In this document: in pieces, positions 1,253-64,000 of the stretch | How the letters are laid out: each line of letters starts with the position of its first letter | How positions within the stretch are numbered: position 1 is the first letter of the stretch | Source: Chloroflexi bacterium bin125 | GTDB lineage: Bacteria; Chloroflexota; Dehalococcoidia; Bin125 | Assembly: GCA_002239025.1 (NCBI GenBank) | Contig: MPNM01000008.1 | Coordinates: forward strand, 47,196 to 111,195 | Length of the DNA: 64,000 nt | Reading direction: 5' to 3' | Notes under the pieces: generated by a model | Databases searched by the model: none | Told to the model about the DNA's origin: nothing | Seen by the model: the letters and a program-made list of their open reading frames with translations, nothing else | Position numbers and translations under genes: made by a program

Positions 1253-1295
1253 CAGCGCGACCTCACATGAATCTCACTGTGTATGACGCTTGAGT

Positions 1296-3383
1296 TCATT
1301 GCGACCGCTCGCGAATTGCTTCGTAGAGCCGTTGGTCCTCTTCCTCGGTCAACGCGATCCTGGCGTACGGTGGAGGGAGTGCTGTCGACAGTGCGCCCGT
1401 CGTTTCGGCCCAGGCTCTGAGAATCTCGCCTCCGGCGCCGGCGGCCAGGTATCCGGCTGAGAACTCGAAGAAGACGACCATCGCGATTTGCGGGTCGTCG
1501 AACGGAGCGAATGCGATGAACCAGCCGTGTGTTGGTCCTTCTTCCTCGCCCGACACCGCCGTGCCGGTCTGGTTGAACTCGGCCGTGCCGGTCTTGCCAG
1601 CGATCAGCATCTCAGGAAGTTCGACCAGTGCGTCGTGACACGTGCCGGCCAGCGTGCAGAGCGCCATGCCTTCGCGGACGATCCTGAGGATTTCAGGATC
1701 GACGTCAACCTGGTTTCGCACGACGGGCTGCCAGGGCTGCACGACCTTGCCATTGGTGTCGATCAGCTCGCGCACGACTCGTGGTTCGTAGACCGTGCCG
1801 CCATTGGCGATTGCAGCAGTGGCGACCGCCATCTGCAACGGGGTAACGGTCGTGAACCCCTGACCGATGGCCATGTTGTAGGTGTCACCGTCTCGCCAGT
1901 CTTCCCCGAATGCCTCCAGCTTTTGCCGGGCCGAAGTGATCAGCCCGGCTGCTTCACCTTCCAGATCGACCCCGGTCTGGGCGTCGAAGCCCAACTCACG
2001 AGCCCACTTCGCCAGTGCCTCGTTGCCCGCGCCATTAAACTCGACATCTCCGGCGACGATGCCTTCGTCGGCCAGAGCATCTAGTCGCTCCTGTTCGCTG
2101 GGGTGTCGGGGAGGATTCTCCGGGTTGCGGTACGGCTCGCCGCCGGCGACGTAGTAGAAGTACACGTTCGACGACTCGGCCAACGCTGTGCGAATGTTGT
2201 AGACCCCTTGCGTCGTGTCGCCGAATCGGTAAATGATGCCAGGAGAGAGCTCGTTATGAACTTCCAACACGCCAGGCGAGTAAATCTTGGTCTCGGGTGT
2301 GATCGCGCCTTCCGCCAACCCGGCGACCGCCGTCACGATCTTGAAGATTGATCCGGGTGGAAACTGGTCCTGGATCGAGTGGTTGATCAATGGTTGCCCA
2401 GGATCCTCCAGCAGTGCCTGGTACTCGGCTGTCGTGATCTCCTCGTAAATGTTGACGTCGTAGTTGGGCACGGAGACCATCGCCAGGACTTCGCCCGAGT
2501 TGACGTCAAGCACGATCGCAGAAGCGAACAATGACGCCCCCTGGTGTTCCAACAGGATCTCTTCGACCTGCCGCTGGAGGTCGATGTCAATGGTCAGCAC
2601 TGCACTCAGGCCCGGTGTTGGCGGACGATTGTCGAGGGTGCGCAGAATATTGCCGACGGCGTCGACCTCGACGAGTTGACGCCCTGCAGTGCCTCTGAGT
2701 TGGCGTTCATAGGCGGCCTCGATACCGGTTCGTCCGATCTGATCGCTGTATAGGTAGCGAGCATCGGATAGCTCTTCGTATTCCTCCTCGGAGATCTTGC
2801 CGACATAACCAAGAATGTGTCCGAGCAGCCGGCCGTGGTCGTAGCGCCGAGTTGAAACGGTCTCAACCTGCACACCGGGCAACGTGGAACGACGTGAGGT
2901 GACCTCGATGACCTGTGCCGGCGACGGATCGTCATCGATCAGCAGCGGCAGGAACGGGTCGTTCGAATACTTGCGGTCCCAAATTTGCTGCTCTATGTCC
3001 CAGGCGCGGACATCGAACATTTCGGCCAGTTCTTCCGACACATTCTTCACTTCGTAGTCGGAGACGTCGGCCGAGATCAATGTGATCCGATATGCCGGGG
3101 CGTTTTCGACCAGCAAGTTGCCGTTTGAGTCGTAGATCAACCCTCTGGAGGGTGCAATCTCAATTGTTCGTACACGGTTGCTTGCGGCTCTCGCGACGAA
3201 CTCATCGTGGCGCAGAATCTGGAGCCGGACCAGTTGTACGGTGAGGATTCCGAACAGCAACAGGATGAATCCACCCAGCACCCAGACTTTGGCGCGGACG
3301 GGAAACCCTTCGCCATGCTCGATGTGCTGCGAGTACTCGCGCGCAACGCCTTCCGACTTACCCGGCCTTGGTCGCCGTTGCAT
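1296..3383 (-). CDS. mrdA: Penicillin-binding protein 2 (elongasome transpeptidase)
   Basis: N-terminal TM then PBP dimerisation and transpeptidase domains; likely start at MQRRPRPGK (CAT 3381-3383), overlapping mreD stop by 1 nt; ORF track extends to 3452. Confidence 0.85.
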   Translation of the reverse strand: MQRRPRPGKSEGVAREYSQHIEHGEGFPVRAKVWVLGGFILLLFGILTVQLVRLQILRHDEFVARAASNRVRTIEIAPSRGLIYDSNGNLLVENAPAYRITLISADVSDYEVKNVSEELAEMFDVRAWDIEQQIWDRKYSNDPFLPLLIDDDPSPAQVIEVTSRRSTLPGVQVETVSTRRYDHGRLLGHILGYVGKISEEEYEELSDARYLYSDQIGRTGIEAAYERQLRGTAGRQLVEVDAVGNILRTLDNRPPTPGLSAVLTIDIDLQRQVEEILLEHQGASLFASAIVLDVNSGEVLAMVSVPNYDVNIYEEITTAEYQALLEDPGQPLINHSIQDQFPPGSIFKIVTAVAGLAEGAITPETKIYSPGVLEVHNELSPGIIYRFGDTTQGVYNIRTALAESSNVYFYYVAGGEPYRNPENPPRHPSEQERLDALADEGIVAGDVEFNGAGNEALAKWARELGFDAQTGVDLEGEAAGLITSARQKLEAFGEDWRDGDTYNMAIGQGFTTVTPLQMAVATAAIANGGTVYEPRVVRELIDTNGKVVQPWQPVVRNQVDVDPEILRIVREGMALCTLAGTCHDALVELPEMLIAGKTGTAEFNQTGTAVSGEEEGPTHGWFIAFAPFDDPQIAMVVFFEFSAGYLAAGAGGEILRAWAETTGALSTALPPPYARIALTEEEDQRLYEAIRERSQ

Positions 3384-3928
3384 TAGAAGCCGGCCGATCT
3401 CGATGGTACGGACACTGCAGCGGCGCCTGACGTGGGGATCCTCACAAACCAATAGACGACGGCGCCGAGCATCATGTTCCCCAGGACCCCACCCAGCATG
3501 ATCGTGCGCAACGCAGCGAGCCAGTTGACGCCGGTCGTTGTCAGCTCAACGGCGATCGCGTGCGCCGTGAAGTGCAGGATTGACGCAGCGCCGATCAGCA
3601 CAATCGTCATCGCCCATTCCAGCGCTATCGGAGCAGGGCCTCGGTCAACTGACCTGGCGCGCCAGGTCAGCGCAGCCAGGCCGATTGGAGCTAACGCTGC
3701 GACTGATTCGGGCATTCCTTGAAATGCGAGTAGTCCGAGCCCGATCCCGGCCAGCGGGATCATCACCAGGGTCTCGATCGGTGGTCGGACCATCGCCCAA
3801 CAACAGAGCACGACCAGGACCACCTGTGGCCCGACTCCAAAGATGACGAAGGAGGAACTGGTCGAGGTCTGAAAGACCACCAAAACGAACAGTCCTCCGA
3901 GCAGCAAGATCCAACGGATGACGCTCAC
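3383..3928 (-). CDS. mreD: Rod shape-determining protein MreD
   Basis: 181 aa hydrophobic multi-TM protein between mreC and mrdA. Confidence 0.7.
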   Translation of the reverse strand: MSVIRWILLLGGLFVLVVFQTSTSSSFVIFGVGPQVVLVVLCCWAMVRPPIETLVMIPLAGIGLGLLAFQGMPESVAALAPIGLAALTWRARSVDRGPAPIALEWAMTIVLIGAASILHFTAHAIAVELTTTGVNWLAALRTIMLGGVLGNMMLGAVVYWFVRIPTSGAAAVSVPSRSAGF

Positions 3929-3931
3929 TGC

Positions 3932-4807
3932 TTACCCTCCGTCAGCGTCCGTTGATTCCGGGCTGAGAATCGACAGATCGGGTGGGGGAATCGTGAGCTG
4001 GACGAGCACCTGTTCGAGTTGCTCGAGCGGTGCGATCGGATCGAGCACGACGTAGCGGAAGGCGTCCTGGACCGTGCCCTCCGCCGCTGAGACGCGGCCA
4101 ACTGGCAGACCCTGCGGCAGTTGCCCGTCAAGTCCGGAGGTGACGAAGATGTGGCCCAACTCGACCTCGGACTCCCACGGGATCCGGATTTCCAGATGAC
4201 CCAGCGTGTCGCCGGTGGCGACGACCTCGCTGCGCGATTGCTGGTGCAAGACCCGCACGGCGCTGTCGGGATCGGTGATCAGGCGGATAAACGAGGTGTG
4301 TGGACGGACATCATAGATTTGCCCGATCAGCGTGCCACCAGCAGCGAGCACGGGCAGGCCGACCCGGATTCCGTCGTTCGATCCGCGGTCGATGCCGATC
4401 ACTGTGCGCAGCCCGGTCAGGTCTCGGGTTGTGACATTCGCGGTGATGGTGACGGCGTCGGTCTCGGCCTGAACCTCCAGCAGCGCCTGCCGGGCTCGGA
4501 CCTGGATCTGTTGTTCGCGCAGACGCGAATTGTCTGCTTCGAGTTGTTCAATTCTCGAACGCAGCGCTCGATTCTCGGAGTTCAGGCGGCCGAAGTCATC
4601 GAGGTCGGACAGCAGATTGGCGATCGGCTCACCTGCCTGTCGGAACGTTCGCTGGACAGGATTGAGCGCGGACGCGGCCTGGTCCTCAATCGTCGCAGCC
4701 CAGCCAACCAGCCCCAACACGGCCAGTCCACCGACCATGAGTGTGATCACCAGCACCCAGCGAATGCGCGCTCCCAGTAGGCGAACCAGTGCGCCGATTA
4801 TTGGCAC
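3932..4807 (-). CDS. mreC: Rod shape-determining protein MreC
   Basis: N-terminal TM, coiled coil (LRSRIEQLEADNSRLREQQ), beta-rich C-term; position after mreB. Confidence 0.85.
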   Translation of the reverse strand: MPIIGALVRLLGARIRWVLVITLMVGGLAVLGLVGWAATIEDQAASALNPVQRTFRQAGEPIANLLSDLDDFGRLNSENRALRSRIEQLEADNSRLREQQIQVRARQALLEVQAETDAVTITANVTTRDLTGLRTVIGIDRGSNDGIRVGLPVLAAGGTLIGQIYDVRPHTSFIRLITDPDSAVRVLHQQSRSEVVATGDTLGHLEIRIPWESEVELGHIFVTSGLDGQLPQGLPVGRVSAAEGTVQDAFRYVVLDPIAPLEQLEQVLVQLTIPPPDLSILSPESTDADGG

Positions 4808-4834
4808 GAGAACCTGCCAATCGCATTCGCGGCG

Positions 4835-5893
4835 CTAGCGCCGCCCGGCCAGCACCTGACCGTCGGTCGCCGCAAGGGCGCGTGTCTCGGTTAGCGCCTC
4901 AGCGCAGCCGCGTACGACGCAGGTGAGGGGAGAATCCGCCTTGTAGACGGGGAACTTGGTCTCTTGCGACATGCGCCGATCAAGTCCGGGTAAGTACGCC
5001 CCGCCGCCGGCGAGCGCGATGCCCTGCTGCATGATGTCGGGAATCAACTCCGCAGGCGTGATCTCCATGGTCTTCAGCACGGCGTCCATAATCGAGGAGA
5101 CCGCCGAAGAGATTGCATCGCGTAACTCGACCGTCGTCACCGTGATCACTTTGGGCATGGAGGTCGAGAGGTCGCGGCCACTCAGGGTGACGTCGCGTTC
5201 CTCTTCCAGCGGGAAGGCCGACGCGCCAGCGATTTTGATCTTCTCGGCCGAAGCCTCGCCGATCTGAATGTTGTGGACCTGGCGCGCATAAGTGATGATC
5301 GCCTGGTCAATCTCGTCGCCGGCGACGCGGGTTGAGGTGCTGACGACCATGCCGCCCATCGAGCAGACGGCGACTTCGGTGGTGCCACCGCCGATGTCGA
5401 CAACAATGCTGCCGGTGGACTCAAAGATCGGCAGCCCGGCGCCGATCGCCGCTGCCATGGGCTCTTCAATCAGATGCACTTCGCGAGCGCCGGCCGAGCG
5501 CGTGGCTTCGAAAATGGCGCGCTTCTCAACCTCGGTCGCGCCGCCGGGGATGCCGACCATCACGCGCGGTCGTCCAATGCCGATCCCGCTGCGCTGCAGC
5601 GCCTCGTGGATGAAGTGATTGAGCATTCTCGATGTGACATCGAAGTCGGAGATGACGCCGTCCCGCAAGGGCCTGGTTGCGACGATATGAGCGGGCGTGC
5701 GCCCGACCATCGTTTTGGCCTGCTTGCCGATCGCGAGCACTGAGTTGTCGATCCGGTTGATCGCCACTACCGACGGCTCGTTGACCACGATTCCGCGACC
5801 GCGCACGGACACCAAGGTGTTGGCGGTGCCCAGGTCGATGCCCACATCGGGCGAGAATCGTCGGGCCAACCAGCCGAACGGGGACCAACCCAT
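4835..5893 (-). CDS. mreB: Actin-like rod shape-determining protein MreB
   Basis: VGIDLGTANTLV ... GGGTTEVAV actin/Hsp70-fold motifs; 352 aa. Confidence 0.95.
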   Translation of the reverse strand: MGWSPFGWLARRFSPDVGIDLGTANTLVSVRGRGIVVNEPSVVAINRIDNSVLAIGKQAKTMVGRTPAHIVATRPLRDGVISDFDVTSRMLNHFIHEALQRSGIGIGRPRVMVGIPGGATEVEKRAIFEATRSAGAREVHLIEEPMAAAIGAGLPIFESTGSIVVDIGGGTTEVAVCSMGGMVVSTSTRVAGDEIDQAIITYARQVHNIQIGEASAEKIKIAGASAFPLEEERDVTLSGRDLSTSMPKVITVTTVELRDAISSAVSSIMDAVLKTMEITPAELIPDIMQQGIALAGGGAYLPGLDRRMSQETKFPVYKADSPLTCVVRGCAEALTETRALAATDGQVLAGRR

Positions 5894-24887: not shown

Positions 24888-24965
24888 TTCCGAACACTGT
24901 CAACCGCAAGCGTATCTCACGACAACCGGGAAGTTGTCTTCGCTGAGGCTTCCTATACTCGATTC

Positions 24966-27788
24966 ATGCCGACCAACACTGCCGACTCTGACCAACAATC
25001 CCAGATGACGTCGCTCTCTCAGGATGCAGGAAACGATTCTTCGACGCCTAAGCGAATCGTCATCTTTGATGCGTATGCGCTGATTTTCCGCGCATATTTC
25101 GCGATGCAGCGGGCCAATCTGCAGACCAGGGCGGGTGAACCGACAGGCGCCGTGCGTGGATTTACCGCCACGATGCTCTACATCTTCAACACGCTGAACC
25201 CAACTCACGCCGCATTCGCGTTTGACGTCGATGACACCACCGTATTCCGGCGTGAGATCGATCCCAACTACAAGGCACACCGCGATCCGATGCCGGAAGA
25301 CCTGCCGTCGCAGATCCAGCGCTGCCGCGAGATCGCCGAGGCATTCTCTGTGCCCGTCTATGAGCAGCCCGGATTCGAAGCTGATGACGTGATCGGTACG
25401 CTCGCCGACCAGGCTGTCGAGGCTGGTTTCGACACCTGGATCTGCACGTTGGACAGCGATCTCCTGCAACTGGTCAACAGGGACATCTCGGTCTACCTCT
25501 ACAACCCGTTCAAGAGCGAGTACACCGCCTACGACAGCCCCGACGCTGTTCGTGGCCGCTACGAGGTCGACCCGATTCAGATCATCGATTTCAAGGCGCT
25601 CGTCGGCGACAAGTCGGACAACATCCCGGGGGTCAAGGGCGTCGGCAAGGTCGGCGCGGTCAAACTGCTGAGCGAGTTCGGCACGGTGGAGGGCATCTAC
25701 GACCACATCGACGATGTCAAGCCGGCTGGCACCCAGAAGAAGCTGATCGCCGACCGCGACAACGCCTTCATGAGCAAGGACCTCGCCACGATTCGCCACG
25801 ATGCGCCGGTGGCGCTTGATGTCGCCGCGGCCGATGTGACCGATTTCAGCCACGACGCCGTCCTGGCAAAGTTCGAGGAGCTTGAATTCCGCACGCTCGT
25901 CGACCAGATCCCGGGCGATGAAGGCGCTGCGGCTCCCAGTGTGCAGCAGCCGCCGTTCGACGACTACGACCTGGTGGCCGATGAAACCGCGCTGAGCGAG
26001 TGGGTCGTTCGCGCGATGAACGCAGAACTGCTCGCCGTCGACCTGGAGACCTCGTCCATTGACACGATCGATTGCGACATTGCGGGCTACGCGCTCTCCG
26101 ACAAGGCAGGCGCCGGTTGCTACATTCCGGTGGGCCATCAGACGGACGAGGCTCAGCTTGACCACGAAGTGGTCAAAGCGGCGTTGCGGCCGGTGCTTGA
26201 GAACTCGGCCGTACCCAAGTTGCTACATAACGCCAAGTTCGACATCAAAGTCCTGCGCCGCCATGGGATCTCCTTGCGCGGACTCCGCGACGACACCATG
26301 GTCGCCGCATTCCTGCTCAACAAGTCGCCGATCGGTCTGAAAGCGATGGCCCTCAACGAGCTGGGTATCGAAATGACGCCGATCGAGGACCTGATCGGCA
26401 AGGGACGCAAGCAAGTCTCGATGGTCGATGTGTCGGCCGCGGACGCAGGCAAGTATGCAGCCTCCGACGCTGATATCACGCTGCGGCTCGCCAATCTGCT
26501 GCTCCCACAGCTCGCAGAAAACGAGACCATGGAGAAGCTCTATCGAGAGCTTGAGTTGCCGCTAATCCCGATCCTCGTAGACATGGAACTGGCCGGCGTC
26601 ACGCTCGACACCGACATCCTGCTCGAACTCGATCAGCAGCTCAATAGCGAGATCGAGACGGTCACAACGCAAATCTTTGAGGATGCCCAGCACGAGTTCA
26701 ATATTGGCTCGCCCAAGCAACTCAGCGGCGTGCTCTTCGATCAACTCGGGTTGCCCAAGACTCGCAAGACCTCGCAGGGCTATTCGACCGACGCCCAGCA
26801 GATAGAGCGGCTCGTCGACGCGCATCCAATCGTCAATCACGTCCTGCAGTGGCGAGAACTGACCAAGCTGCGCAGCACATACGTGGAGTCCCTGCCCGAT
26901 GAAGTGCATGCGTCGACGGGACGTATTCACACCGACTACAACCAGACCGTCGCCGCCACCGGCAGGCTCTCATCCGAGTCGCCCAACCTGCAGAACATCC
27001 CCGTCCGCACCGAGCAAGGACGACAGATTCGTGCTGCATTCGTCGCGCGACCGTGGGACGAGTTGTCGGACACTGACAATGTCTGCTTCGTCTCGGCTGA
27101 CTATTCGCAAATCGAGCTGCGGGTGCTTGCCCATCTCTCCGAGGACGAGGGCCTGATTACGGCCTTCCGCGACGGCGAGGATATCCACGCAGCGACCGCG
27201 TCTGGCGCGTACGGAGTGTCGATTGATGATGTCCAGCCGGAAATGCGTCGCGTCGCCAAAATGATGAACTTCGGCGTGATCTACGGTCTGTCGGCGCATG
27301 GTCTGTCGCAACGGAGCGGGATGGAGCGTCGGGACGCCCAGGCCTTCATCGACGCGTACTTTGGCCGCTTCGAGCGCGTGCAAACGTGGATCGAAGAGAC
27401 CAAGGAGTCGACCAAGGAACTGGGCTACGCCGAAACCCTGCTGGGACGCCGCCGCTACTTGCCGGAAATCCGCTCGAACAACTTCCAACGGCGCAACGCC
27501 GCCGAGCGCATGGCCGTCAACATGCCCGTCCAGGGCACCGCCGCCGACGTGATGAAGCGGGCGATGATCGAAGTCGACGAGGCGCTCAGAGACCGAGAGT
27601 TGCAGTCGCGAATGCTGCTCCAGGTACACGATGAGTTGATCTTCGAAGTCCCGCAAGAAGAAGTCGACCAGTTGGCACAACTGCTGCGAGAAATCATGCC
27701 GGCGTCGCTCAACCTCATCGTGCCGTTGCAAATTGAAGTAAAGAGCGCCCTCAACTGGCGCGACCTGGAACCTATTGAAGTTGCCTGA
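24966..27788 (+). CDS. polA: DNA polymerase I
   Basis: 5'-3' exonuclease N-term ([16 protein letters not shown]), 3'-5' exo region, family A polymerase motifs ([28 protein letters not shown]); ATG 24966; ORF track frame open from 23739. Confidence 0.95.
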
Positions 27789-50534: not shown

Positions 50535-51977
50535 GTGCGTGCCATCGGATATCTCAGTCAGCGCAGTGAACACCCGCCGCGGACCGACCACGCCGGCGAC
50601 GATCCCACGTTGGTCGTCCAGAACGCCAACTTCCTCGAGTATTGCCACGAGCACGGTTTCGAGCCCACCGCTACATTCCTCGATGCCGACACCGCGCACG
50701 ACAGCGAGCGCCCCGGACTCACCCAACTGCTGCGCCACCTGAGTGAAGAGGCGCGCGGCTTCACCTTCGTTATCACCCAGAGCTTTATCAATCTCGGCCA
50801 CGACGCCACGCATGCCGTCAGAACCGTGCTCCAACTCCGCGCTCGAGGCGTCCAACTCGTCTCTCTCGAGGACGGACCGATCGACGAGTCATCGCTGATC
50901 GATCTCTGGCGTCTACACAGCGATCCCGACCCCGATGCCAACCGCCGCAGGGAACGGTTGCAAGAGCGTGCCCGACTCGGCCAGGCCATCGGCCGTCCGC
51001 CATACGGCTACGGCGTCGGCGACGATGGCCGCTACGAGATCGACGAAGAGGAAGCGGCCGTGGTTCGGCGCATCTTCAACCTCTGTTTGCACGACGGACT
51101 CGGCATCCGCCGAATCGCGCAGCGCCTCAACGAAGAAGGCTTTCAAACTCGCCGCGGACGCAACTGGAGCATGGTCAGTATTCGCGACATGCTGCGTAAC
51201 CCCGTCTACATCGGCCGCTACGACAAGCTCGGGGTCAGCGTGCCGGGCAACCATCACGCCATTGTTTCCGAACCTGACTTCGAGGCCGTCGCGCAACAGA
51301 TGTCCCAGCGACGCACCGCGCCCGGCGTCAGTCATCCCTCCGACTTCTTACTCGCGGGACTGGTCTGGTGCGGCGAGGATCAGACACGCATGATCGGCGT
51401 GACCCGTCGTCAGCAGTGGCGCAAAGCCAGTGGCGACACTGCCGCGGCGACCTATCGCTACTACCAGTCCGAGGCACGCACCAACCAGTCGGTCGGCGGA
51501 TATCACACACGTCGTGCCGACGACCTTGAGGCCGAGGTTCTTTCGCACATCCGCGGAGAGCGGCAAGGCGGAGAGATTGCGGTGCTCAACATCGGCAGCA
51601 ACGACACCGCACTCGCCGCCGAGACCGCCGTCGCCGTCTCTACCGCCGAAGCGCGGCTCCGCGCCATCGACCGCAAGCTCAGCCAACTACTCGATGACGC
51701 ATCCGCCGGAGATCCACCGCCCGCGAGCCTGCAAGAGGCCGGAGCCGACATAATCGCCGAGTGGGAAACAGCCAGCGCCGATCTCGCCCAGATCAAAAGT
51801 CGAGCCCAGGCCCAGGAACGAGAAGCCGACCGCCGCCGCCGCAGAGATCAGCGTCTGCAACGAGTTCGAGAACACTGGGACTCCCTCGCATTCCCTCAAC
51901 AACGAGACCTGATCGAACACCTCGTCGACCGAGTCATCGTCTTCGACAACTCCGTCACCACCCAGCTCAAGGCCTAA
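50535..51977 (+). CDS. Large serine recombinase-like protein (resolvase N-domain + recombinase domain + degenerate Zn-ribbon/coiled coil)
   Basis: MRAIGYLSQRS..., DSERPGLTQLL, GRPPYGYGVGDDGRYEIDEEEAAVVRRIF, LNEEGFQTRRGRNWSMVSIRDMLRNPVYIG; several canonical catalytic residues appear substituted. Confidence 0.75.
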   Translation: MRAIGYLSQRSEHPPRTDHAGDDPTLVVQNANFLEYCHEHGFEPTATFLDADTAHDSERPGLTQLLRHLSEEARGFTFVITQSFINLGHDATHAVRTVLQLRARGVQLVSLEDGPIDESSLIDLWRLHSDPDPDANRRRERLQERARLGQAIGRPPYGYGVGDDGRYEIDEEEAAVVRRIFNLCLHDGLGIRRIAQRLNEEGFQTRRGRNWSMVSIRDMLRNPVYIGRYDKLGVSVPGNHHAIVSEPDFEAVAQQMSQRRTAPGVSHPSDFLLAGLVWCGEDQTRMIGVTRRQQWRKASGDTAAATYRYYQSEARTNQSVGGYHTRRADDLEAEVLSHIRGERQGGEIAVLNIGSNDTALAAETAVAVSTAEARLRAIDRKLSQLLDDASAGDPPPASLQEAGADIIAEWETASADLAQIKSRAQAQEREADRRRRRDQRLQRVREHWDSLAFPQQRDLIEHLVDRVIVFDNSVTTQLKA

Positions 51978-53205: not shown

Positions 53206-54798
53206 ATGTTGAACAAGTCACTCCGCGATCTCGTCGATCTGCCTACAAGTTCCGAAGACCCATCATCATTGGCCACGGTCATCACGGGAGTCACCCAGGA
53301 CTCCCGAGCCGTCCGACCCGGCGACCTCTTCGTCGCCATCCCAGGATTCTCCGTCGACGGCCACTTGTACATCGGCGACGCCATCACCAACGGGGCGGCA
53401 GCCCTCGTCGTCCAGTCCGACCGTCGCGACATCTGGCAACCAATCGCCGACAGCAATCCCGACATCGCCGTCATCAGCGTTGGCGACACGCGTGCCGCGT
53501 TGCCGGAGATCGCCGCAGCCTTCCACGACTTCCCGGCCCAAAAGCTCACAGTTGTCGGAGTCACGGGCACCGACGGCAAGTCGACCACGACATACCTCAC
53601 CCACGCCATGTTGACCGCCGCGGGACACCAGACTGGGCTGCTCAACGGCGTCGAGTTTCACATCGGAGGCGAGTGGACTCGCAACGAAACCGGCGAGACC
53701 ACGCCCGAGGCCGACATCATCCAGGCCAGACTCGCTGAAATGGTCGCCGCCGGCGACACACACGCCGTCCTCGAAGTCAGCTCCCATGGCCTCGACCTCC
53801 ATCGAGCCGACCAGATCAACGTACAGGTCGCCGTCTTCACCGGCCTCTCCGACGACCACCTCGACTTCCACCAGACGCGAGAGCAATACCTCGCCGCCAA
53901 GCTGAAACTGTTTCAGTCCCTGGAGGATCACGTGCCTCCTTTCTCCCCCCGCTCCGCGGGGGGAGATGTCCCGAAGGAACAGAGGGGGGATCTCGAGTCG
54001 GCCACCGCCGTCGTCAGAGCCGAGGATCCGCTCAGCGAAACCATCGCAGCCGCTCACAGTCGGCAGACGTTGGTGGCCACCGCCATCGCTGACACAAAGG
54101 CCGACCTCAGTATCCTCCCAGCCTCTCAGGACGCCACCGGTTCCGATGTCCGAGTCGTCACGCCCGCCGGAGCCCTCGCCGCCCGAGTCCCACTCCCTGG
54201 CGACTACAACCTGGGCAACGCAGCCCTCGCCGCCGGCGCAGCCTGGTCGCTCGGAGTCGGACCGATCGCGATGCAGGCCGCACTCAACAATCTCCGACCC
54301 GTCCCCGGACGAATGGAGTCGATCGACGTTGGACAACCCTTCACCGTCATGGTCGACGCCGCCGCCACCGGACCTGCGCTCGACCTGGCCCTGCAAACGC
54401 TCAAACCGCACACAGTCGGAAGACTGATACTCGTCTTCGGCGTCGCTGGAGAGCGTGACCCCGTGCGCAAATCCAGCATGGCGAAAGCCGCAGCTCTCTA
54501 TGCCGACCACACCGTAATCACGAACGAGAATCCACGCTCAGAAGATCCTGTCGAAATGGTCGATGAAATCGCACAACATCTCGTTGCCGCAGGCGGTCAA
54601 TACTTCGACAAAGAATCCGATCGCCGCCAGGCAATCGAGCGCGCGATCTCACTCGCCAAACCCGGCGACCTGGTCTTGATCGCCGGAAAAGGCGCTGAGC
54701 CCACGATGATCTACGCAGATCGCATTGAACCGTGGGACGATCGGGTTGTCGCCCGTGATCTGCTGCGAGGACTGATGTCTGAGCGCCTACCGCACTAA
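53206..54798 (+). CDS. murE: UDP-N-acetylmuramoyl-L-alanyl-D-glutamate--2,6-diaminopimelate ligase carrying an in-frame repeat insertion
   Basis: VVGVTGTDGKSTTTYL P-loop, DYNLGNAALAAGAA, PVPGRME; about 20 extra aa (PPFSPRSAGGDVPKEQRGDL) encoded by a family A fragment. Confidence 0.9.
   Translation: MLNKSLRDLVDLPTSSEDPSSLATVITGVTQDSRAVRPGDLFVAIPGFSVDGHLYIGDAITNGAAALVVQSDRRDIWQPIADSNPDIAVISVGDTRAALPEIAAAFHDFPAQKLTVVGVTGTDGKSTTTYLTHAMLTAAGHQTGLLNGVEFHIGGEWTRNETGETTPEADIIQARLAEMVAAGDTHAVLEVSSHGLDLHRADQINVQVAVFTGLSDDHLDFHQTREQYLAAKLKLFQSLEDHVPPFSPRSAGGDVPKEQRGDLESATAVVRAEDPLSETIAAAHSRQTLVATAIADTKADLSILPASQDATGSDVRVVTPAGALAARVPLPGDYNLGNAALAAGAAWSLGVGPIAMQAALNNLRPVPGRMESIDVGQPFTVMVDAAATGPALDLALQTLKPHTVGRLILVFGVAGERDPVRKSSMAKAAALYADHTVITNENPRSEDPVEMVDEIAQHLVAAGGQYFDKESDRRQAIERAISLAKPGDLVLIAGKGAEPTMIYADRIEPWDDRVVARDLLRGLMSERLPH
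53935..53995. repeat. Family A fragment inserted in-frame within murE
   Basis: CCTTTCTCCCCCCGCTCCGCGGGGGGAGATGTCCCGAAGGAACAGAGGGGGGATC aligns with the left core of family A (CTTCTCCCCCCTTGCGGGGGAGATGCCGAAGGCAGAGGGGGGTCC). Confidence 0.75.
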
Positions 54799-56535: not shown

Positions 56536-57357
56536 ATGTCAGACCACGACCTCCTGCCGCCCGACCAACGCCTCGACATCAACCTCGTCCGCTCGCTCCT
56601 CAACACTTCTGAGTTCGGCAACAACCTTCACTATCTGGTCCAGACCACCTCCACCATGGACGACGCGCGCCGCCTCGCCGAGGACGGTGCGCGGCACGGC
56701 ACAGTGGTCGTCGCCGACGAGCAGACTGCTGGTCGCGGGACCAAGGGACGCATCTGGGTCTCGCCGCCAGGTCAGAGCATTCACACCACGCTGATCGTTC
56801 GCCCGACCATCGAGCAACTCAAGCGACTCAGCATTGTCAGCCCCGTTGCCACGACCGACGCCGTTCGCGAGACTACGCCGCTGCAACCAACGATCAAGTG
56901 GCCCAATGACATCCAGATGGAACATCGGAAAATGGGCGGCATCCTGATCGAAGCCGACTGGGGAGCCGGTCAACCGCACTACGCGCTGGTCGGCATCGGC
57001 CTCAACGTCAACTTTGACCCCGCACCCTGGGCCACCGAGATTGACCGCCCGGCCACCAGTCTGATGATCGAACTCGGTGCCCGCCAGCAGCGAGAGCCGG
57101 TGTTCGCAGCATTGCTCAATGCCTTCGAGCAGCGCTTCAATCAGGCGGAATCATCCGAGTTGCACGAGGCCTGGACGTCTCGACTGGACACGCTGGGCCA
57201 GGCAGTCACGGTCACGCTCGCAAGCGGAGAAGCGATTCGAGGAACAGCCGTCGCGGTCGATGAAGCAGGAGCGCTAATCCTCGAAACCGAAGAGGGGCAG
57301 CAACGCACGTTTATCGCCGGGGAAGTCACCTTACGAGCGGCCACAACTCCGCAGTAG
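56536..57357 (+). CDS. birA: Biotin--[acetyl-CoA-carboxylase] ligase
   Basis: TTSTMDDARRLAEDG...ADEQTAGRGTKGRIW...KWPNDI BPL motifs. Confidence 0.85.
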   Translation: MSDHDLLPPDQRLDINLVRSLLNTSEFGNNLHYLVQTTSTMDDARRLAEDGARHGTVVVADEQTAGRGTKGRIWVSPPGQSIHTTLIVRPTIEQLKRLSIVSPVATTDAVRETTPLQPTIKWPNDIQMEHRKMGGILIEADWGAGQPHYALVGIGLNVNFDPAPWATEIDRPATSLMIELGARQQREPVFAALLNAFEQRFNQAESSELHEAWTSRLDTLGQAVTVTLASGEAIRGTAVAVDEAGALILETEEGQQRTFIAGEVTLRAATTPQ

Positions 57358-60300
57358 GCCGCAATCGGAGGTCCCGTTGCACGATCAGTGACGGCCCGAC
57401 GATTGGGTCACCAGGTCTCATGATCCGCCACTGACCTGAGATCAGGTCCAGCACGCAGTGCGACGTCCAGAGACCGCCAACATCTTCGCCCGAGAGCACA
57501 ATTCTCGTCTCAACGTCGGTCGGGACACCTTCAAGGTCCGTGAATCCAACCCACCAGACCTTCGCGTCTGGCTCGTCGACGCCATGCAAGCAGGAGGCGG
57601 GAACCGAAGCAATCTGCTCGAGCACATCCGCAGTGTGCTCGACTCGATGCGTGTGAAGGCGGATGGTCCCGTCACCCAGCGATTTGGCATCAATCGAGAG
57701 GTGTAAGCCTCCCCGGACGACCGTTGTCCACCCTTCGCCAGCCAGCACAACTGCATCGACACCCTCTGTTGAAGCGAATCCTCGAGCCAACTCACGAGCA
57801 AACGTAGTCTCGCCATTCGACGATCGCAACGCCGCGTCTTCGATCCGCTGCTTGGTCGACCTCGGTCGAGCGGTTTCGTTGATCGCTTGCGTACGGAATG
57901 CTGCTAGTTCGATGGCGGAAAGATCACGGACCGGACCTTGCTCGCCTGCCGAGTAAGACAGTGTTACCGAGTCGAGCGATGTCACACGCTCTGCCAGCGT
58001 GAGAGTCACATTACTCGCTGACCAGTCCAGTGAACTGACTTCGATTGGGCGACGGCCCGCCGTCACTGTGAAGTCCGATGGCAGCGCGAAGCTCCCGTCG
58101 ACTCGCTGATTGAACATCACTTCGATTTCGCGGGCGTTGGCCACGACGCCACTGACCATCGGTGCCGTCTCGGTAAAGTTGCGAACCACGAAGACAGTGT
58201 CCGGCGCCCTCACTCCGGTCAATCCGGCAATCCCGCCTCGCTGGCGTGACCAATAGACGAGACCGAACGCCTCCAGGTCGTCGGGCAAATCTCTGGATAA
58301 CTCCAGGTAGAGCGAGGTACCACTTACGTCGACGCTGCGCGTCGTTGCCTCAACGTCTGCCCCGACCAGCTCAAACCGCGACGCAGGAATGTGCCGTTCG
58401 AGCAGAGGCTGGTCAAACGTGAGGAACACCGACGACCTCAACGCAAAGGCGGACGCGATCTTCGGCGGCGCGGTGACATCGATCACATCGATCCCGAAAG
58501 AGGCGATTGTCAAGCCAGTCCCACGCAAGGATTCGCCCGAATAACTCACTCGCGCGGGCTGTTCCGCACGAAGACCGGGCGCAACCAACTGCAATCGGAG
58601 CGTGTTGTTGTCGATGGCTGTCACCGCTGCCACCGATGCGTCACCGTTGATCGTGAACTGATTCGGCTCAGGAAGATCTGGTTCCAACGCCTGGTCGAAC
58701 GTCAGCGTCAGCGACACCCCATTAGCTTCAGCGCTCACAACGCATGGAGCTGCTTGAAGCAACTCGCGTTGGAACATCTGTGACTGCGATTCACTTGATT
58801 TGTAACGTCGAACCGTCACGAGATCACCAACGCAGATGGCCAAGTCAGGACTGAGCGCCACTACCGACCCTTGAGTCGAGAACTCAGCGGCACGTTCTGC
58901 TTCGTCGATCAGCAGAGACCACTCGTAGTCCGCGAGCGGAGTGGTCTGCAGTTCTGCCAGGAAGGTCAGTGTGAGACCGCCGAAGTCTGAAGTGACGCAT
59001 TGCAGACCCCAGGCAGGATCGATCAGGTTGGGCACATCGAGATCAAACGCCGAGATCTCCAGGCCCGACGCATCACGCAGTGCATGCTCCGCCGGTGCAT
59101 GCGCCACCGACAACGATGCGCATTCGGGGATTGGGTCGGTCAAATGAATCATCAGGCTTCTGTCCCGTGTTGAGGCCTGCTCAATTGCTTGCAAGTCGTC
59201 GTCAGCCGCGACGCGGAGCGAGCTCGCCTCGAGCTGCATGGCCGTCCCCATCTCAGCATCGAATTCAACAACGATGCGCTCAGGTTCCTTGCGGTCCAGC
59301 GCGCTGGCCACCGGCGCCGCCGCAGTCAAGTTGGCGACCGGCATTGGGTCAATACTCTCTACGTCGTGGGGCGGCATCGAGGTGTCGCGAAGGTTGAATC
59401 GGCCATCGAAGATCGATTCAGGGCTGTAAGTCACCCTCAATTGCTCCCCTGGGACAACTCGCTCGGCCAGGTCGAGAAACACAGTTGAGTCGCTAATCGC
59501 GACCGACTCGATCGCCACGACCTCGTCGTTGTTCCGTAGAACATCAAACCACTGCACTTCTGGATGTTCGTCGCAGTCGAAGTCGGGAATCTGCTCTTCG
59601 AGAGCTTCGCAGTTTGGAGGAGGCATAGAGCTCGGGTCGAGCGGCTGATCGAATTCAATCGCCAGCTTCCGGTCATTTGCCGTCGCCTGGACAAGTAACG
59701 GCGCCACATCGACGCGATTGATCACTGGCATCGTAAAACCCGATACGGCATTTGGAGCATCGTCATCTCGCAGGCCGCCGGACTCTGGTAGCGAATACGT
59801 CAACAAAAGCGCAGCCCCTTCAGGTACCGATTCACCTGCTTCAAGCGAGATGTTCAGACGACGCCGTTGTTCCGACGAGGGATCGAAGACCACCGAATCG
59901 ATCGGTTGCGCCGGTTCGAACGAAAACCAGGAATGATCAACGGTGTTCAGTGCATCCAGCGTTTGATCGAAACTCAGAGTGACGACTTGCCCACTCTCGT
60001 CGGTGATCACCTCGACTGGATACGGCGCGTAGTCCGTCTGATTGTCAACTTCTTGAACAAACTCCTCGATTCTGTTGCCATGAGTATCCAGCAACGCATG
60101 GGTCGCAGGGGGCGTATAGCTGAGTGAGATCGACTCATCTTCGACAGCCCCGACAGCGAGCCTCAACGTCAAGCTGGAACCCATCAAGGCGACCGACTCA
60201 ATCCCGATTCCGTTCGACAGCGAAAACGCGGTCATTAGAGGCTGCGTGTCCTCGTCCAGATCGTCACTGAACCGCAGCAGCAGCACGGCACCGTCAACTT

Positions 60301-63300
60301 CAGCGGACTCGACCTCAGCCGTTCTTGGCGTCAGGTTCGTCAGAAGAAGATTGCTAATCTGGGCTCGATGTTGCCCGACATCGTCATCGCGGATTCGGAT
60401 TGTCCCCGAAACAGGGAAGTACTTGATGGTCAGGGATTCATCCGCTCCAACCGACTCTGAAAGCGTCAACACCACCTTTCCAACGCCATCTGGTCCGTCG
60501 TTGGAGACTTCGACAAAGGTGATTGAGGCGTCAGTTCCCTCGACCTTGAAATGATCGGTCGGATATCCGTCATCGCCGCCGAATCGAGGGTCGTCGTATA
60601 TCTCCTGATCGAGAATGACGGTGATCGTCTCGTCCTCAACCACTCCCGACACAGGAACAGGTGCGGTATCGGTCCGATTGTCGATGGCCAGCGAAAACGA
60701 CTCGACGCGGTTACCACTTGGGTCTGCGACTCCGGCCTCAGTCGGTATCAGATAATCGATCGATGCAGTTTCGTCCTCTACGAGCGCTCGCGAGAGCGTC
60801 AAGTCCAGCGAATCGTCGTCGATGGCAACGGTAGTCACGCTCACCGCCGACTCCGCCGACTCCGCCGTGATGCTGAACAGATTGGCTGGGACCGCCGAAG
60901 CCGAGTCGAGCGACTGGTCAAACTCGATCAAGACCGCGTCGCCGTCACCCGTCGCCGATGCGGCAGTCGGCGCGACATCGGTGTTGTTGGTCACGGCTTC
61001 GGAGAAGTCCGCAATCATCGTGCCATCGGACTGCTGCAAGGGTGAGTGCATCGGTGCGGTGTACGTCAGTGTGTAGTTCGCCCCCTCAACAAGCGGGTCA
61101 GCCAACGTCACTGTGACCGCCATGTCCGAGACGGTGACGCTCGAGACGGATTGTTCCCCCGAACCGAGGGAGAATGCCGATGCGTCCGGCGTTGAGTTGG
61201 TGTCCAGATTCACCGAGAAGCTGATGACGATCTCCGCGCCGTCTCCCACGACCGATCGCACCAGCGGTTCCGGCGTCATGTTGACCACGGCGAATCCCGT
61301 GAACATTGCGACGACGACTTCTTTGCCTGCACGTTTGAGTTTGTTGGAGTCTCCTGCGGAATAGGACACGGTGACCGTGTCGTCGTGCTCGACGACTGTC
61401 GACAGCGCGAGGGTCACCGACGCGCCGTCGATAGCCACGCCGGTGACTGAGATATCTGCCGGCATGAGACTGAAGTTGGTAGCTGGCGGCTTGCTGTCTT
61501 CATCCAGCGCGCGATCGAATGTAAGTACTAATGAGTCGCCGTTGACTGTAGCCTCGGTCGGCCGTGGCGCACCGTCTGCGTTGTTGGTCACTGACGCGGA
61601 GGTCCAGGCTGAGGTCTTCCACATCGCATCGACACTCTGCAGCGCGGGCGACGTGGTGTCCGTCGGCGGTTGATAGCTGATCGTCACCGACTCGTTGACA
61701 TCGGCCGCGGGATCGAGGCTGAGCACGACGTTGGAGCCGCTGACGGACACGGCATCGATGGTACCCGCAGCGCTGCCGGCCATGGTGAAGGTGGACTTGT
61801 CGGGCACTCCGCCGGCTGTGGCGAGTAGCGAGTGGGACATGACGATCGTAAGCGTGCGGCCTGCCGGAGCAACAGACGCTGAGTCAAACGTCGGCGTTGG
61901 ATCTCCCGCCAGGTTGGTTACAGGCAGCGAGACGAAGGAGTCGACGCCGATCTCCTTGCCGTCTCGCTTCAGCGGCGATTCCATCGGAGCGGTGTAAGAG
62001 ACGCTGATGCGCTCGGTGTGATTAATGGCTGAACTGAGAGTCAGGATCAGGTCGTTCCCATCGATCGATAGGTTCGTCACTGCTGCCGATGTGCCAGCCA
62101 CCGAGACGGCGATCCCAGCCGGAATTGAGCTGGGATCCAGAAGTCGATCGAATGAGAGGGTCAGACGGTCACCGTCAACCTCCGCCAAGATCGGACGAGG
62201 TTTGCCATCGGCGCTGTTGGTCACCGGTTGGCCGGTGAACGCCAGCACCGGCTGGGCGTCTGCAGCCGACTGCAATCGCGCTGCCATCAAGTCGGTCGGC
62301 GGCGCGTAGCCGACTGTGACCGTTTCGTCGACATCGGCCCGCGGGCTGAGCGATAGAGAGACGGTCGAGTCGTCAATCGCGACTGAGTCAACCGATGCGG
62401 AGGTTCCCGTGAGCGAGAACGTCGAGCCCGCAGGCATATGCTCAGCGTCCTCATCGAGGGCGAGCGAGAAGGTGATGGTCAGGGTCGATCCCTCGGCCGA
62501 AACCGCTGCGCTGCTGAACTCCGGTACAGGCGCAACGGTGTTGTTGGTAACTGACCGATCCGTGAACGAATCGGCATCTACGATGTTCCGGCCCTCAATT
62601 CTTGGTGGTTGGTCGGGCTTCGCATAGGAAACGGTGATCGCGGCCCCGGCGCTCACCGCCGATGTAAGGGTGAGTGTCACGGTGGACTCAGTCAGCGATG
62701 TGTTGGCGAATGAAATCTTGCTGATCGTGACTCCATCCTCACCGTCAATCGAGAATGCTGAGGCAGGCGCGACCGCCTTGAGTGGAAGATTGAATGTGAT
62801 CTCCAATACTGCGCCGTTAACTACTGCCTTCGTCACAATGGGCTTCGCCGTCGGTGTACTGCTCTGAAAGGTGAAGGAGTAAATGTCCGCCACATTGTGC
62901 GCTGCGTCTGACTGACGAAGCGGCGTCTGGTTGGGTTCGATGTATTCGAGGGTGTATGTCGTCGAGTCGCGATTGTGCAGGATTCCGCTCAGCGAGAGCG
63001 TGACAACTGCCCTCGACACCGAAACCCCCTCCACACTCGGAGCGTGTTGAATGCCTCCAATCGTGAACGCATCGGCAGCAGGAACGCTGTCCTCGTCGAG
63101 CTCCTCACTGAAATTCAGCGTGACGAGGTCATACAGGGCCGTAACGGAGTTGAGGGTTGGAGGGCTGTCGACGCGATTCACAACCGCACGCTCCGACCAG
63201 CTCTCGATCTGCTTGTTGCCCTGATTCGCGTCTTGCGGCGGATCGCCGTCATCGGCGTCGTCCCTGTCATAATCCAACGCGATGTCATCGCCTTCGTCAA

Positions 63301-63925
63301 TGCTGCCCTCGCGTCCCAGGTCGATATCGAGCCTGGACGATGTGGCGGATTGGATCTGGACATCGTTAACCGGCACGGATCGCCCATTGACCTCGACTGC
63401 GAAGGCGGCAATCGTCAGATATCCGTTCTCTCCAGTTGAAATGGCTTCGCAAAATGTGACGTAGATGTATCTCCCCGCCGAGTCCGTTACCAGACTGACG
63501 ATCTCAGGAGGAGCGTCCGTGTTGTTGGTTACGGCCTTGTCGTTGAACGCCGCCACCGGCGTTCCGTCGCCATCTGTGAGGGATGAGTTGGCCGCCGAGT
63601 AACTCAGTGTGACGGCCTCCGAGGTGCATTCGACATCCGGCACCGAGGATTCAAGCGTGAGCACCAAGTCGTTGTCGACCGTGGCGGACTGGACTGCGAG
63701 TGTGGAGTCGCCGAGTCGAACCGTGAAATCTGAGGCCGAAGCCGTGCTATCAGCGTTGAGTGCGGTGGTGAAGGAGATCGTGAGTTGCGCGCCCTCCACA
63801 CTGGCTGCAGTGACCGCCGGCGGAGACTGTGTGTAGGTCGTCAGCGTCGTGAGTCCAACAAACGTTGCGAACGCTAGCGCTGCAAACAGTAGAAGCGAGG
63901 GCCGGCGACCGTGCAGCGCCAGCAC
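57326..63925 (-). CDS. Giant (2,199 aa) secreted protein composed of ~20 tandem Ig-like (SbsA/Big_5-type) repeats plus unique C-terminal domain
   Basis: N-terminal signal peptide; repeating ~95-100 aa units (V.N..D.AP....A.V.G..L.L.F...LD..S.P....F.V...........V.L.L...V.....V.VSY..P......D..GN.V..F) throughout. Confidence 0.6.
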   Translation of the reverse strand: MLALHGRRPSLLLFAALAFATFVGLTTLTTYTQSPPAVTAASVEGAQLTISFTTALNADSTASASDFTVRLGDSTLAVQSATVDNDLVLTLESSVPDVECTSEAVTLSYSAANSSLTDGDGTPVAAFNDKAVTNNTDAPPEIVSLVTDSAGRYIYVTFCEAISTGENGYLTIAAFAVEVNGRSVPVNDVQIQSATSSRLDIDLGREGSIDEGDDIALDYDRDDADDGDPPQDANQGNKQIESWSERAVVNRVDSPPTLNSVTALYDLVTLNFSEELDEDSVPAADAFTIGGIQHAPSVEGVSVSRAVVTLSLSGILHNRDSTTYTLEYIEPNQTPLRQSDAAHNVADIYSFTFQSSTPTAKPIVTKAVVNGAVLEITFNLPLKAVAPASAFSIDGEDGVTISKISFANTSLTESTVTLTLTSAVSAGAAITVSYAKPDQPPRIEGRNIVDADSFTDRSVTNNTVAPVPEFSSAAVSAEGSTLTITFSLALDEDAEHMPAGSTFSLTGTSASVDSVAIDDSTVSLSLSPRADVDETVTVGYAPPTDLMAARLQSAADAQPVLAFTGQPVTNSADGKPRPILAEVDGDRLTLSFDRLLDPSSIPAGIAVSVAGTSAAVTNLSIDGNDLILTLSSAINHTERISVSYTAPMESPLKRDGKEIGVDSFVSLPVTNLAGDPTPTFDSASVAPAGRTLTIVMSHSLLATAGGVPDKSTFTMAGSAAGTIDAVSVSGSNVVLSLDPAADVNESVTISYQPPTDTTSPALQSVDAMWKTSAWTSASVTNNADGAPRPTEATVNGDSLVLTFDRALDEDSKPPATNFSLMPADISVTGVAIDGASVTLALSTVVEHDDTVTVSYSAGDSNKLKRAGKEVVVAMFTGFAVVNMTPEPLVRSVVGDGAEIVISFSVNLDTNSTPDASAFSLGSGEQSVSSVTVSDMAVTVTLADPLVEGANYTLTYTAPMHSPLQQSDGTMIADFSEAVTNNTDVAPTAASATGDGDAVLIEFDQSLDSASAVPANLFSITAESAESAVSVTTVAIDDDSLDLTLSRALVEDETASIDYLIPTEAGVADPSGNRVESFSLAIDNRTDTAPVPVSGVVEDETITVILDQEIYDDPRFGGDDGYPTDHFKVEGTDASITFVEVSNDGPDGVGKVVLTLSESVGADESLTIKYFPVSGTIRIRDDDVGQHRAQISNLLLTNLTPRTAEVESAEVDGAVLLLRFSDDLDEDTQPLMTAFSLSNGIGIESVALMGSSLTLRLAVGAVEDESISLSYTPPATHALLDTHGNRIEEFVQEVDNQTDYAPYPVEVITDESGQVVTLSFDQTLDALNTVDHSWFSFEPAQPIDSVVFDPSSEQRRRLNISLEAGESVPEGAALLLTYSLPESGGLRDDDAPNAVSGFTMPVINRVDVAPLLVQATANDRKLAIEFDQPLDPSSMPPPNCEALEEQIPDFDCDEHPEVQWFDVLRNNDEVVAIESVAISDSTVFLDLAERVVPGEQLRVTYSPESIFDGRFNLRDTSMPPHDVESIDPMPVANLTAAAPVASALDRKEPERIVVEFDAEMGTAMQLEASSLRVAADDDLQAIEQASTRDRSLMIHLTDPIPECASLSVAHAPAEHALRDASGLEISAFDLDVPNLIDPAWGLQCVTSDFGGLTLTFLAELQTTPLADYEWSLLIDEAERAAEFSTQGSVVALSPDLAICVGDLVTVRRYKSSESQSQMFQRELLQAAPCVVSAEANGVSLTLTFDQALEPDLPEPNQFTINGDASVAAVTAIDNNTLRLQLVAPGLRAEQPARVSYSGESLRGTGLTIASFGIDVIDVTAPPKIASAFALRSSVFLTFDQPLLERHIPASRFELVGADVEATTRSVDVSGTSLYLELSRDLPDDLEAFGLVYWSRQRGGIAGLTGVRAPDTVFVVRNFTETAPMVSGVVANAREIEVMFNQRVDGSFALPSDFTVTAGRRPIEVSSLDWSASNVTLTLAERVTSLDSVTLSYSAGEQGPVRDLSAIELAAFRTQAINETARPRSTKQRIEDAALRSSNGETTFARELARGFASTEGVDAVVLAGEGWTTVVRGGLHLSIDAKSLGDGTIRLHTHRVEHTADVLEQIASVPASCLHGVDEPDAKVWWVGFTDLEGVPTDVETRIVLSGEDVGGLWTSHCVLDLISGQWRIMRPGDPIVGPSLIVQRDLRLRPTAELWPLVR

Positions 63926-64000
63926 GGCGTCACGACGCTCAACACGCCCAACTCTCGGCTAGCGAGCAGACCAATTCGGTGGTCGCTTCTCGACAAATGC

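Follow-up and report, generated by a model that had tools for sequence, protein, structure and literature searches.

A giant SWM-repeat protein of a sponge-associated Dehalococcoidia bacterium, with apparent exchange of module blocks and a distinct C-terminal domain family

Introduction

SwmB is a giant cyanobacterial surface protein of about 10,800 amino acids (aa) that is required for non-flagellar swimming, together with the SwmA surface layer (S-layer) and dedicated transporters. Here we describe a giant protein with the same type of repeat, encoded in a 64,000-nucleotide (nt) stretch of contig MPNM01000008.1 (assembly GCA_002239025.1, positions 47,196 to 111,195) of the sponge-associated Dehalococcoidia bacterium Chloroflexi bacterium bin125. 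This whole stretch is referred to as the window. The predicted product of the gene has a mass of 232 kDa and a pI of 4.1. It shares with SwmB of Synechococcus sp. WH8102 a repeat module of ~100 aa, and both proteins are giant, acidic and expected at an extracellular or surface location. Unlike SwmB, which exceeds 10,000 aa, the protein described here comprises 2,199 aa with 19 modules, starts with a predicted Sec signal peptide, belongs to a monoderm Chloroflexota host, ends in a unique C-terminal domain and has no motility-gene neighbourhood.

Other surface systems offer further points of comparison. The GhlA "grappling-hook" fibre of Litorilinea aerophila is composed of 49 immunoglobulin-like (Ig-like) DUF11 domains and forms surface filaments of ~180 nm (PMC13319060). 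As in GhlA, which comes from the same phylum, and in GhpA of Aureispira (PMC13319060), one giant tandem Ig-like polypeptide would span the filament. GhlA, however, belongs to the DUF11 family, has three times the size and no classical signal peptide, and our protein shows no sign of oligomerisation or of a hook. Among sortase-anchored Ig-like adhesins, the giant adhesin of Mobiluncus mulieris reaches 7,651 residues (PMC10619420). This protein, Ebh and SasG resemble the one described here in combining an N-terminal Sec signal with a long stalk of Ig-like beads in a monoderm organism, but in our protein the LPXTG motif, the C-terminal transmembrane helix and the basic tail are all missing, and the C-terminus is a globular domain of 185 aa instead. 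The S-layer and adhesin proteins built from Big_5 Ig-like domains likewise have tandem beta-rich modules and the boundary motif V-T-N-x-T-D-x-P; our protein, by contrast, belongs primarily to SWM_repeat, lacks SLH and any other S-layer anchor, and has modules without a detectable solved structure. Finally, the cell-wall genomic island of Haloquadratum walsbyi is a hypervariable locus for giant surface proteins in natural populations (PMC4535781). A surface-protein gene there varies drastically among otherwise near-identical genomes, as it does here; there the island varies in gene content, whereas we find a block mosaic inside one syntenic gene with fixed module order. Our literature search found no papers linking SwmB-type proteins to sponge Chloroflexota.

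As a giant secreted protein, which is how an earlier note on this stretch had described it, the product is ordinary: the repeats have curated family entries in Pfam and TIGRFAMs, and an identical protein has already been deposited and named. What is new here is the apparent swapping of module blocks between closely related bacteria, together with the family formed by the C-terminal domain. On balance, we favour the reading that the protein is an exposed, adhesin-like surface fibre or coat component under diversifying selection.

Results

Mosaic variation among orthologs

To place the variation of the gene against its surroundings, we compared it with orthologs whose flanking aminotransferase and BirA are 99% and 93-96% identical, respectively, to those of the window at the protein level. 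Against these orthologs, protein identity per module ranges from 31% to 91%, in a pattern that differs by partner, and across all relatives compared it spans 27-94%. By the Nei-Gojobori method, the synonymous divergence (dS) of the divergent blocks is above 1.7 or saturated, against 0.1-0.25 in the flanking genes, and the ratio of nonsynonymous to synonymous divergence (dN/dS) lies between 0.15 and 0.5 in almost every module. Saturated dS in blocks of low dN/dS therefore points to old sequence that was imported block-wise, and not merely to fast amino-acid change. Judged by these ratios, the gene remains functional and under purifying selection.

The putative recombinant block R05-R09 (Table 1) was delimited by comparing the window gene with the allele of contig L016 (P0014). 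Within the block, the two alleles are for the most part 87-97% identical at the nucleotide level, with a dip to ~60-80% in R06/R07, and module R08 reaches 94% protein identity. Outside this block, the same allele is mostly 42-59% identical to the window gene, while its flanks are 95.5% (birA) and 96.3% (aminotransferase) identical in nucleotide sequence. The steps in identity are located near module boundaries. A six-frame scan of the window with a hidden Markov model (HMM) of the modules matched the giant gene alone, and no silent module cassettes were found elsewhere in the window; the mosaic therefore reflects exchange between lineages and not local shuffling.

These results bear on two earlier statements about the gene. 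It had been called a long-standing component, which holds in so far as module order is conserved and the repeats are old, but not for the sequence as a whole, which is a recombination mosaic evolving far faster than its neighbours. Its GC content had been described as uniform; in fact, the gene has 59.3% GC compared with 62.5% in the rest of the window, and its GC content at third codon positions (GC3) is 0.68 compared with 0.72-0.82 in neighbouring genes, varying from 0.57 to 0.80 among modules.

The C-terminal domain

The array is followed by a C-terminal domain of ~185 aa, shorter than the ~250 aa first estimated. It contains the conserved motifs RSSxGxTTFxRELARGFA and C-V-L-D-L-I-S-G-x-W. 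AlphaFold2, run on an alignment of 42 rows, yielded a model in which two helices on the N-terminal side precede a beta-sandwich of ~11 strands, at a predicted local distance difference test (pLDDT) score of 84.1 and a predicted template modelling (pTM) score of 0.79. As had been noted from the sequence, the domain is without a recognisable relative: it has no hit in Pfam or NCBIfam, and a profile sequence search gave no match in the PDB. A Foldseek search of the model against the PDB returned nothing significant (best E 0.05, TM-score ≤ 0.30), and the viral structure library BFVD contains no match to it.

Several identities of the domain were considered. That it might be a degenerate SWM module was rejected, with an hhalign probability of 0.9% and an alignment limited to the 15-residue boundary motif. 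Autoproteolysis of the GAIN/FIIND type was likewise rejected, as no H-[LF]-[ST] triplet is conserved when the alignment is read column by column. Compared with the beta-sandwiches of ZU5, GAIN subdomain B and FIIND, the domain has 8-13% sequence identity and no significant Foldseek match. The likeness to ZU5/GAIN is thus a lead and not a membership, and homology is not established.

In an exhaustive HMMER search of 1.84 billion representatives, the domain was found in 24 proteins, and in the full-length ones it always forms the C-terminal end of a giant. The extreme rarity suggested by word-index searches, which returned 3-5 fragments, proved to be an artefact, since a full-length search plus a local hmmsearch placed the domain at the end of ~60 ortholog clusters of 2,150-3,120 aa with a common architecture. 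Among the nearest relatives, the domain is better conserved than the modules. Furthermore, a second family of giant SWM-repeat proteins (P0071-P0083; ~3,070 aa, ~30% identical) has a distant form of the domain, in which both cysteines are missing and to which a further beta-rich extension of ~110 aa is joined.

N-terminus, anchoring signals and cysteines

The only strongly hydrophobic segment of the protein is its N-terminal core (KD19 > 1.6 at aa 9-12). More than 50 orthologs share the same layout, in which an n-region and an h-region are followed by small-x-small-Q-[ST]-[AP]-P, and on this pattern the signal is probably cleaved just before the conserved Gln33, between TYT and QSPP. The conservation of a Sec-type N-terminus agrees with the earlier description of a secreted protein. 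No sortase signal was found: the protein contains zero matches to LP.T[GAS], its C-terminal region has no hydrophobic segment, and it ends in ...LWPLVR. HMMER searches of the whole protein against Pfam matched no SLH, cadherin, FN3 or RTX family; more specifically, SLH was absent from all hits at E ≤ 1, and the protein is not of the RTX/type 1-secreted kind, as it has no HemolysinCabind hit and starts with a conserved Sec-type N-terminus.

All ten cysteines of the protein fall in nearby pairs. Cys2112 and Cys2157, both in the C-terminal domain, do not vary in any of 38 close relatives, whereas in the distant family of 3,070 aa both have jointly given way to hydrophobic residues. This combination of invariance and joint replacement points to a disulfide, and thereby to a place outside the cytoplasm.

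The repeat modules

The modules were delimited with an HMM that was seeded with one repeat and iterated against the giant protein itself until convergence. It returned 18 strong matches and one weak match (aa 1631-1705), resulting in 19 units of 90-129 aa each, where about 20 had been counted before. The modules start at residues 27, 131, 247, 354, 458, 567, 668, 778, 879, 977, 1080, 1194, 1292, 1400, 1529, 1625, 1715, 1810 and 1913, and module 16 (aa 1625-1714) is degenerate. The consensus of the units consists of the boundary V-t-N-x-t-D-x-a-P, the segment t-l-s-Y-x-x-P and a terminal ...d..g..v..f, and thereby recovers the recurrent motifs that had been named from the sequence. Pairwise identity between units averages 23% (range 12-44%), and Tandem Repeats Finder detected no DNA-level tandem array in the gene, only trivial 9-nt runs. 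The duplications are therefore old, as the earlier note had proposed for these diverged units. The closest unit pairs are R05/R07 and R06/R08, which hints at an ancient two-unit duplication.

By sequence family, the modules are primarily SWM_repeat/TIGR02059, that is, of the SwmB type, with Big_5 as a weaker and overlapping match. Pfam SWM_repeat (PF13753) matched with E 2.7e-121 and 396.5 bits against a gathering cutoff of 27, in 14 stretches, and NCBIfam TIGR02059 (swm_rep_I, "cyanobacterial long protein repeat") with E 6e-76 and 251.1 bits against 40.1, in 13 stretches. Pfam Big_5 (PF13205, "Bacterial Ig-like domain") also exceeded its cutoff (E 2e-21; 77.1 bits against 23.6), in four stretches overlapping SWM_repeat units. 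The proposed Big_5-like repeats are thus present, whereas the proposed likeness to SbsA gives way to the SWM_repeat assignment. A profile of the 19 units had no match among solved structures in the PDB (best E 0.6).

An N-x-[ST] sequon lies within the V-T-N-x-T-D motif at 10 of the 19 module boundaries (57881-63535), and the whole protein contains 23 sequons. Those at the boundaries could be either purely structural or marks of glycosylation.

Integrity of the gene and its orthologs

The ORF (open reading frame) runs to a stop codon at 57326-57328 with zero internal stops. An in-frame stop lies 12 codons upstream of the GTG, and the next candidate start is codon 43, within the first module. 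Since the N-terminus from the GTG onward is also kept in orthologs, the GTG start is credible. An identical sequence is deposited at NCBI as MCY4617562.1 ("MAG: SwmB domain-containing protein [Chloroflexi bacterium]"), and the identical 2,199-aa protein is found on at least 10 independently assembled contigs (ENA, NCBI GCA_026713765.1, JGI, Logan). One contig with the exact protein derives from run SRR6214543, which is given in a preprint as an Aplysina aerophoba sponge metagenome. This recurrence upholds the original call of one long minus-strand ORF and leaves no sign of frameshifts or stops dividing it into several smaller genes.

When the C-terminal domain was used to scan GTDB species representatives, eight "Dehalococcoidia bacterium" chromosomes were identified among metagenome-assembled genomes (MAGs), six of which contain intact orthologs of 2,196-2,482 aa. 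Module positions are nearly superimposable across species. Two of the orthologs (L004, 2,482 aa; L005, 2,479 aa) have an insertion of 283 aa, corresponding to three extra modules, after window residue 1682, so that the number of modules varies within the genus. Giants with SWM repeats also occur in unrelated bacteria, such as Verminephrobacter and Palauibacter.

Genomic neighbourhood

The gene lies in strict synteny, with an AAA-ATPase, a short-chain dehydrogenase/reductase (SDR) and an enoyl-CoA hydratase upstream. Downstream, the opposite strand carries birA (convergent), a class-III aminotransferase and a Mur ligase. The enoyl-CoA hydratase gene is on the same strand and ends 33 nt before the GTG (window 63926-64000; L013 5191-5967); with this short gap, the giant gene may be co-transcribed with the AAA-ATPase/SDR/enoyl-CoA hydratase metabolic cluster. 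No adjacent secretion, sortase or glycosylation genes were found in the window or at the syntenic loci.

At the other end, the convergent overlap with birA, earlier put at about 30 nt, was measured precisely (Table 1), and the related loci all retain 29-32 nt of it. The two genes share their last ~10 codons on opposite strands, so that an intergenic terminator has no space between them. Part of the constraint on the conserved ...LWPLV[GR] end of the giant protein may thus come from the BirA C-terminus.

The window also encodes a peptidoglycan elongasome, with RodA, PBP2, MreB and a Mur ligase (131-5893, minus strand, and 53206-54798, plus strand), so the organism makes peptidoglycan. This differs from sponge SAR202 genomes, in which peptidoglycan synthesis genes have been reported absent (PMC6306507). 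A large serine recombinase gene (50535-51977, plus strand; Resolvase, Recombinase and Zn_ribbon_recom domains) adjoins an RNase H/RVT_3 gene, and in all related loci, which come from several species (L001, L012, L013, L014, L016), the pair keeps this syntenic position. A fixed position is unusual for the integrase of a mobile element and suggests a domesticated or fixed element. Finally, an ORF of 421 aa beside uvrA (24900-26165, minus strand) has no Pfam match at E ≤ 1e-5.

Table 1 Coordinates of the giant gene and its features in the window
Feature	Position	Strand	Basis or details
Giant-protein gene, complete	57326..63925	minus	single intact ORF, GTG start, 2,199 codons
Predicted Sec-type signal peptide, aa 1 to ~33	63827..63925	minus	basic n-region HGRR and 15-residue hydrophobic core LLLFAALAFATFVGL
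19 SWM_repeat/Big_5 modules, aa 27-2015	57881..63847	minus	Pfam, NCBIfam, self-HMM, unit alignment
Putative recombinant block R05-R09, aa ~460-985	60971..62546	minus	nucleotide identity to the allele on contig L016 (P0014)
C-terminal domain, aa 2016-2199, ~185 aa	57329..57880	minus	ortholog alignments A2 and A4, AlphaFold2 model
Convergent overlap of the 3' ends of the giant gene and birA	57326..57357	both	32 nt; birA at 56536..57357 (plus)

Discussion

We favour a surface fibre because Sec export, paired cysteines, acidity, a beta-rich array, a conserved terminal domain and block exchange above background come together in one protein. The adhesin-like role at the cell surface that the earlier note had suggested for this secreted, modular protein is also the best reading here. 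Its other suggestion, a surface-layer component, has no specific support in the Pfam hits, which include no SLH or other S-layer anchoring domain.

Where the protein sits, its extended shape, the cleavage of its signal, what the C-terminal domain does and which agent selects on the gene are parts of a model that we infer. In this model, the bacterium would export the 232-kDa acidic protein via the Sec pathway, and the signal peptide would be removed before the conserved Gln near residue 33. The nineteen SWM_repeat/Big_5 beta-sandwich modules would then form a beads-on-a-string stalk of perhaps ~70 nm, scaled from ~3.7 nm per Ig-like domain of GhlA, terminating in the putatively disulfide-bonded helix-plus-beta-sandwich domain specific to this protein family. 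The stalk modules would face outside, and this exposure would place the gene under diversifying selection by phage, sponge phagocytes or the host matrix. Homologous recombination would swap blocks of modules between related lineages, often at module boundaries, with purifying selection keeping the modules folded. The C-terminal domain would most likely be the functional end that stays constant, whether as the attachment of the fibre to the cell's own envelope or as an oligomerising or ligand-binding tip.

Some observations weigh against this model. An A. aerophoba metaproteome paper that we consulted does not mention the protein. The Ig-like fold of the modules is assigned from Pfam Big_5 membership only. 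In some comparisons the C-terminal domain is a mosaic too, with 46-85% identity, so that it is a constant end only in relative terms. Of the eight MAG orthologs, one has a frameshift and another an in-frame stop (L008 ~4622-4658, L009 ~7750); these interruptions may be long-read assembly errors or real inactivation. Moreover, SLH, LPXTG and a C-terminal transmembrane helix are all absent; the protein has no recognised wall or membrane anchor and could therefore be released rather than cell-bound. As a released extracellular protein, it would end up, once shed, in the sponge mesohyl and might there bind host matrix or serve as a decoy for phage or host receptors. The cleavable-looking signal peptide and the lack of an anchoring motif or second transmembrane segment would fit such a product, but shedding 232 kDa would be costly and the conserved, putatively disulfide-bonded C-terminal domain, found only at the ends of giants, is a better fit to a docking module. 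Although neither point is decisive, we consider release unlikely.

A similarly doubtful alternative is a subunit of an S-layer or a component integrated in its lattice, which would self-assemble into a two-dimensional paracrystalline coat like that of other Dehalococcoidia, with the C-terminal domain docking to peptidoglycan or a secondary wall polymer. Cultured Dehalococcoidia (Tepidiforma) have an S-layer over peptidoglycan, and the genome studied here encodes the elongasome described above; the protein is acidic, cysteine-poor and Sec-exported, its Big_5 matches resemble Ig-like S-layer domains, and hypervariable alleles are typical of S-layer genes. In line with this, a modelling study of SWM_repeat obtained as its best, though weak, template the SbsC S-layer fragment 2ra1_A (GMQE 0.21, 21% identity; PMC8078820). 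Set against these points, 19 tandem modules in 232 kDa suggest a fibre over a lattice protomer, the Pfam search for known S-layer anchoring domains, SLH included, found none, and GC3 below that of the neighbouring genes does not suggest very high expression. In Synechococcus, according to McCarren and Brahamsha, the S-layer is reportedly SwmA and not the SWM-repeat protein SwmB. That the giant protein is a functional counterpart of SwmB in non-flagellar swimming is highly improbable in our view. The common repeat family (PF13753/TIGR02059) and the NCBI name would suggest it, but SWM repeats are present in many unrelated giant proteins, the protein is five times smaller than SwmB, and its host is a monoderm sponge symbiont of the Dehalococcoidia with a different envelope. 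Its neighbours are housekeeping genes (enoyl-CoA hydratase, SDR, birA, aminotransferase), with no swmA-like or transporter genes among them.

Taking up the surface fibre again, its variability far above the conserved housekeeping surroundings would mark the giant protein as an exposed recognition surface. A bolder and rather improbable version holds that the C-terminal domain is an unrecognised prokaryotic relative of ZU5/GAIN, serving as a docking or tip module, and that the gene encodes a trans-species polymorphic module-cassette fibre whose swapped blocks set recognition by phage or sponge cells. If true, it would be a strain-level recognition determinant in the sponge-Chloroflexota symbiosis. 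The C-terminal domain is a compact, confidently modelled and unannotated family, confined to the ends of giants in one Dehalococcoidia clade, and could be described as a new domain. As a whole, the giant protein offers a candidate marker of variation between strains, of susceptibility to phage or of host recognition in sponge symbionts that are abundant yet uncultured.

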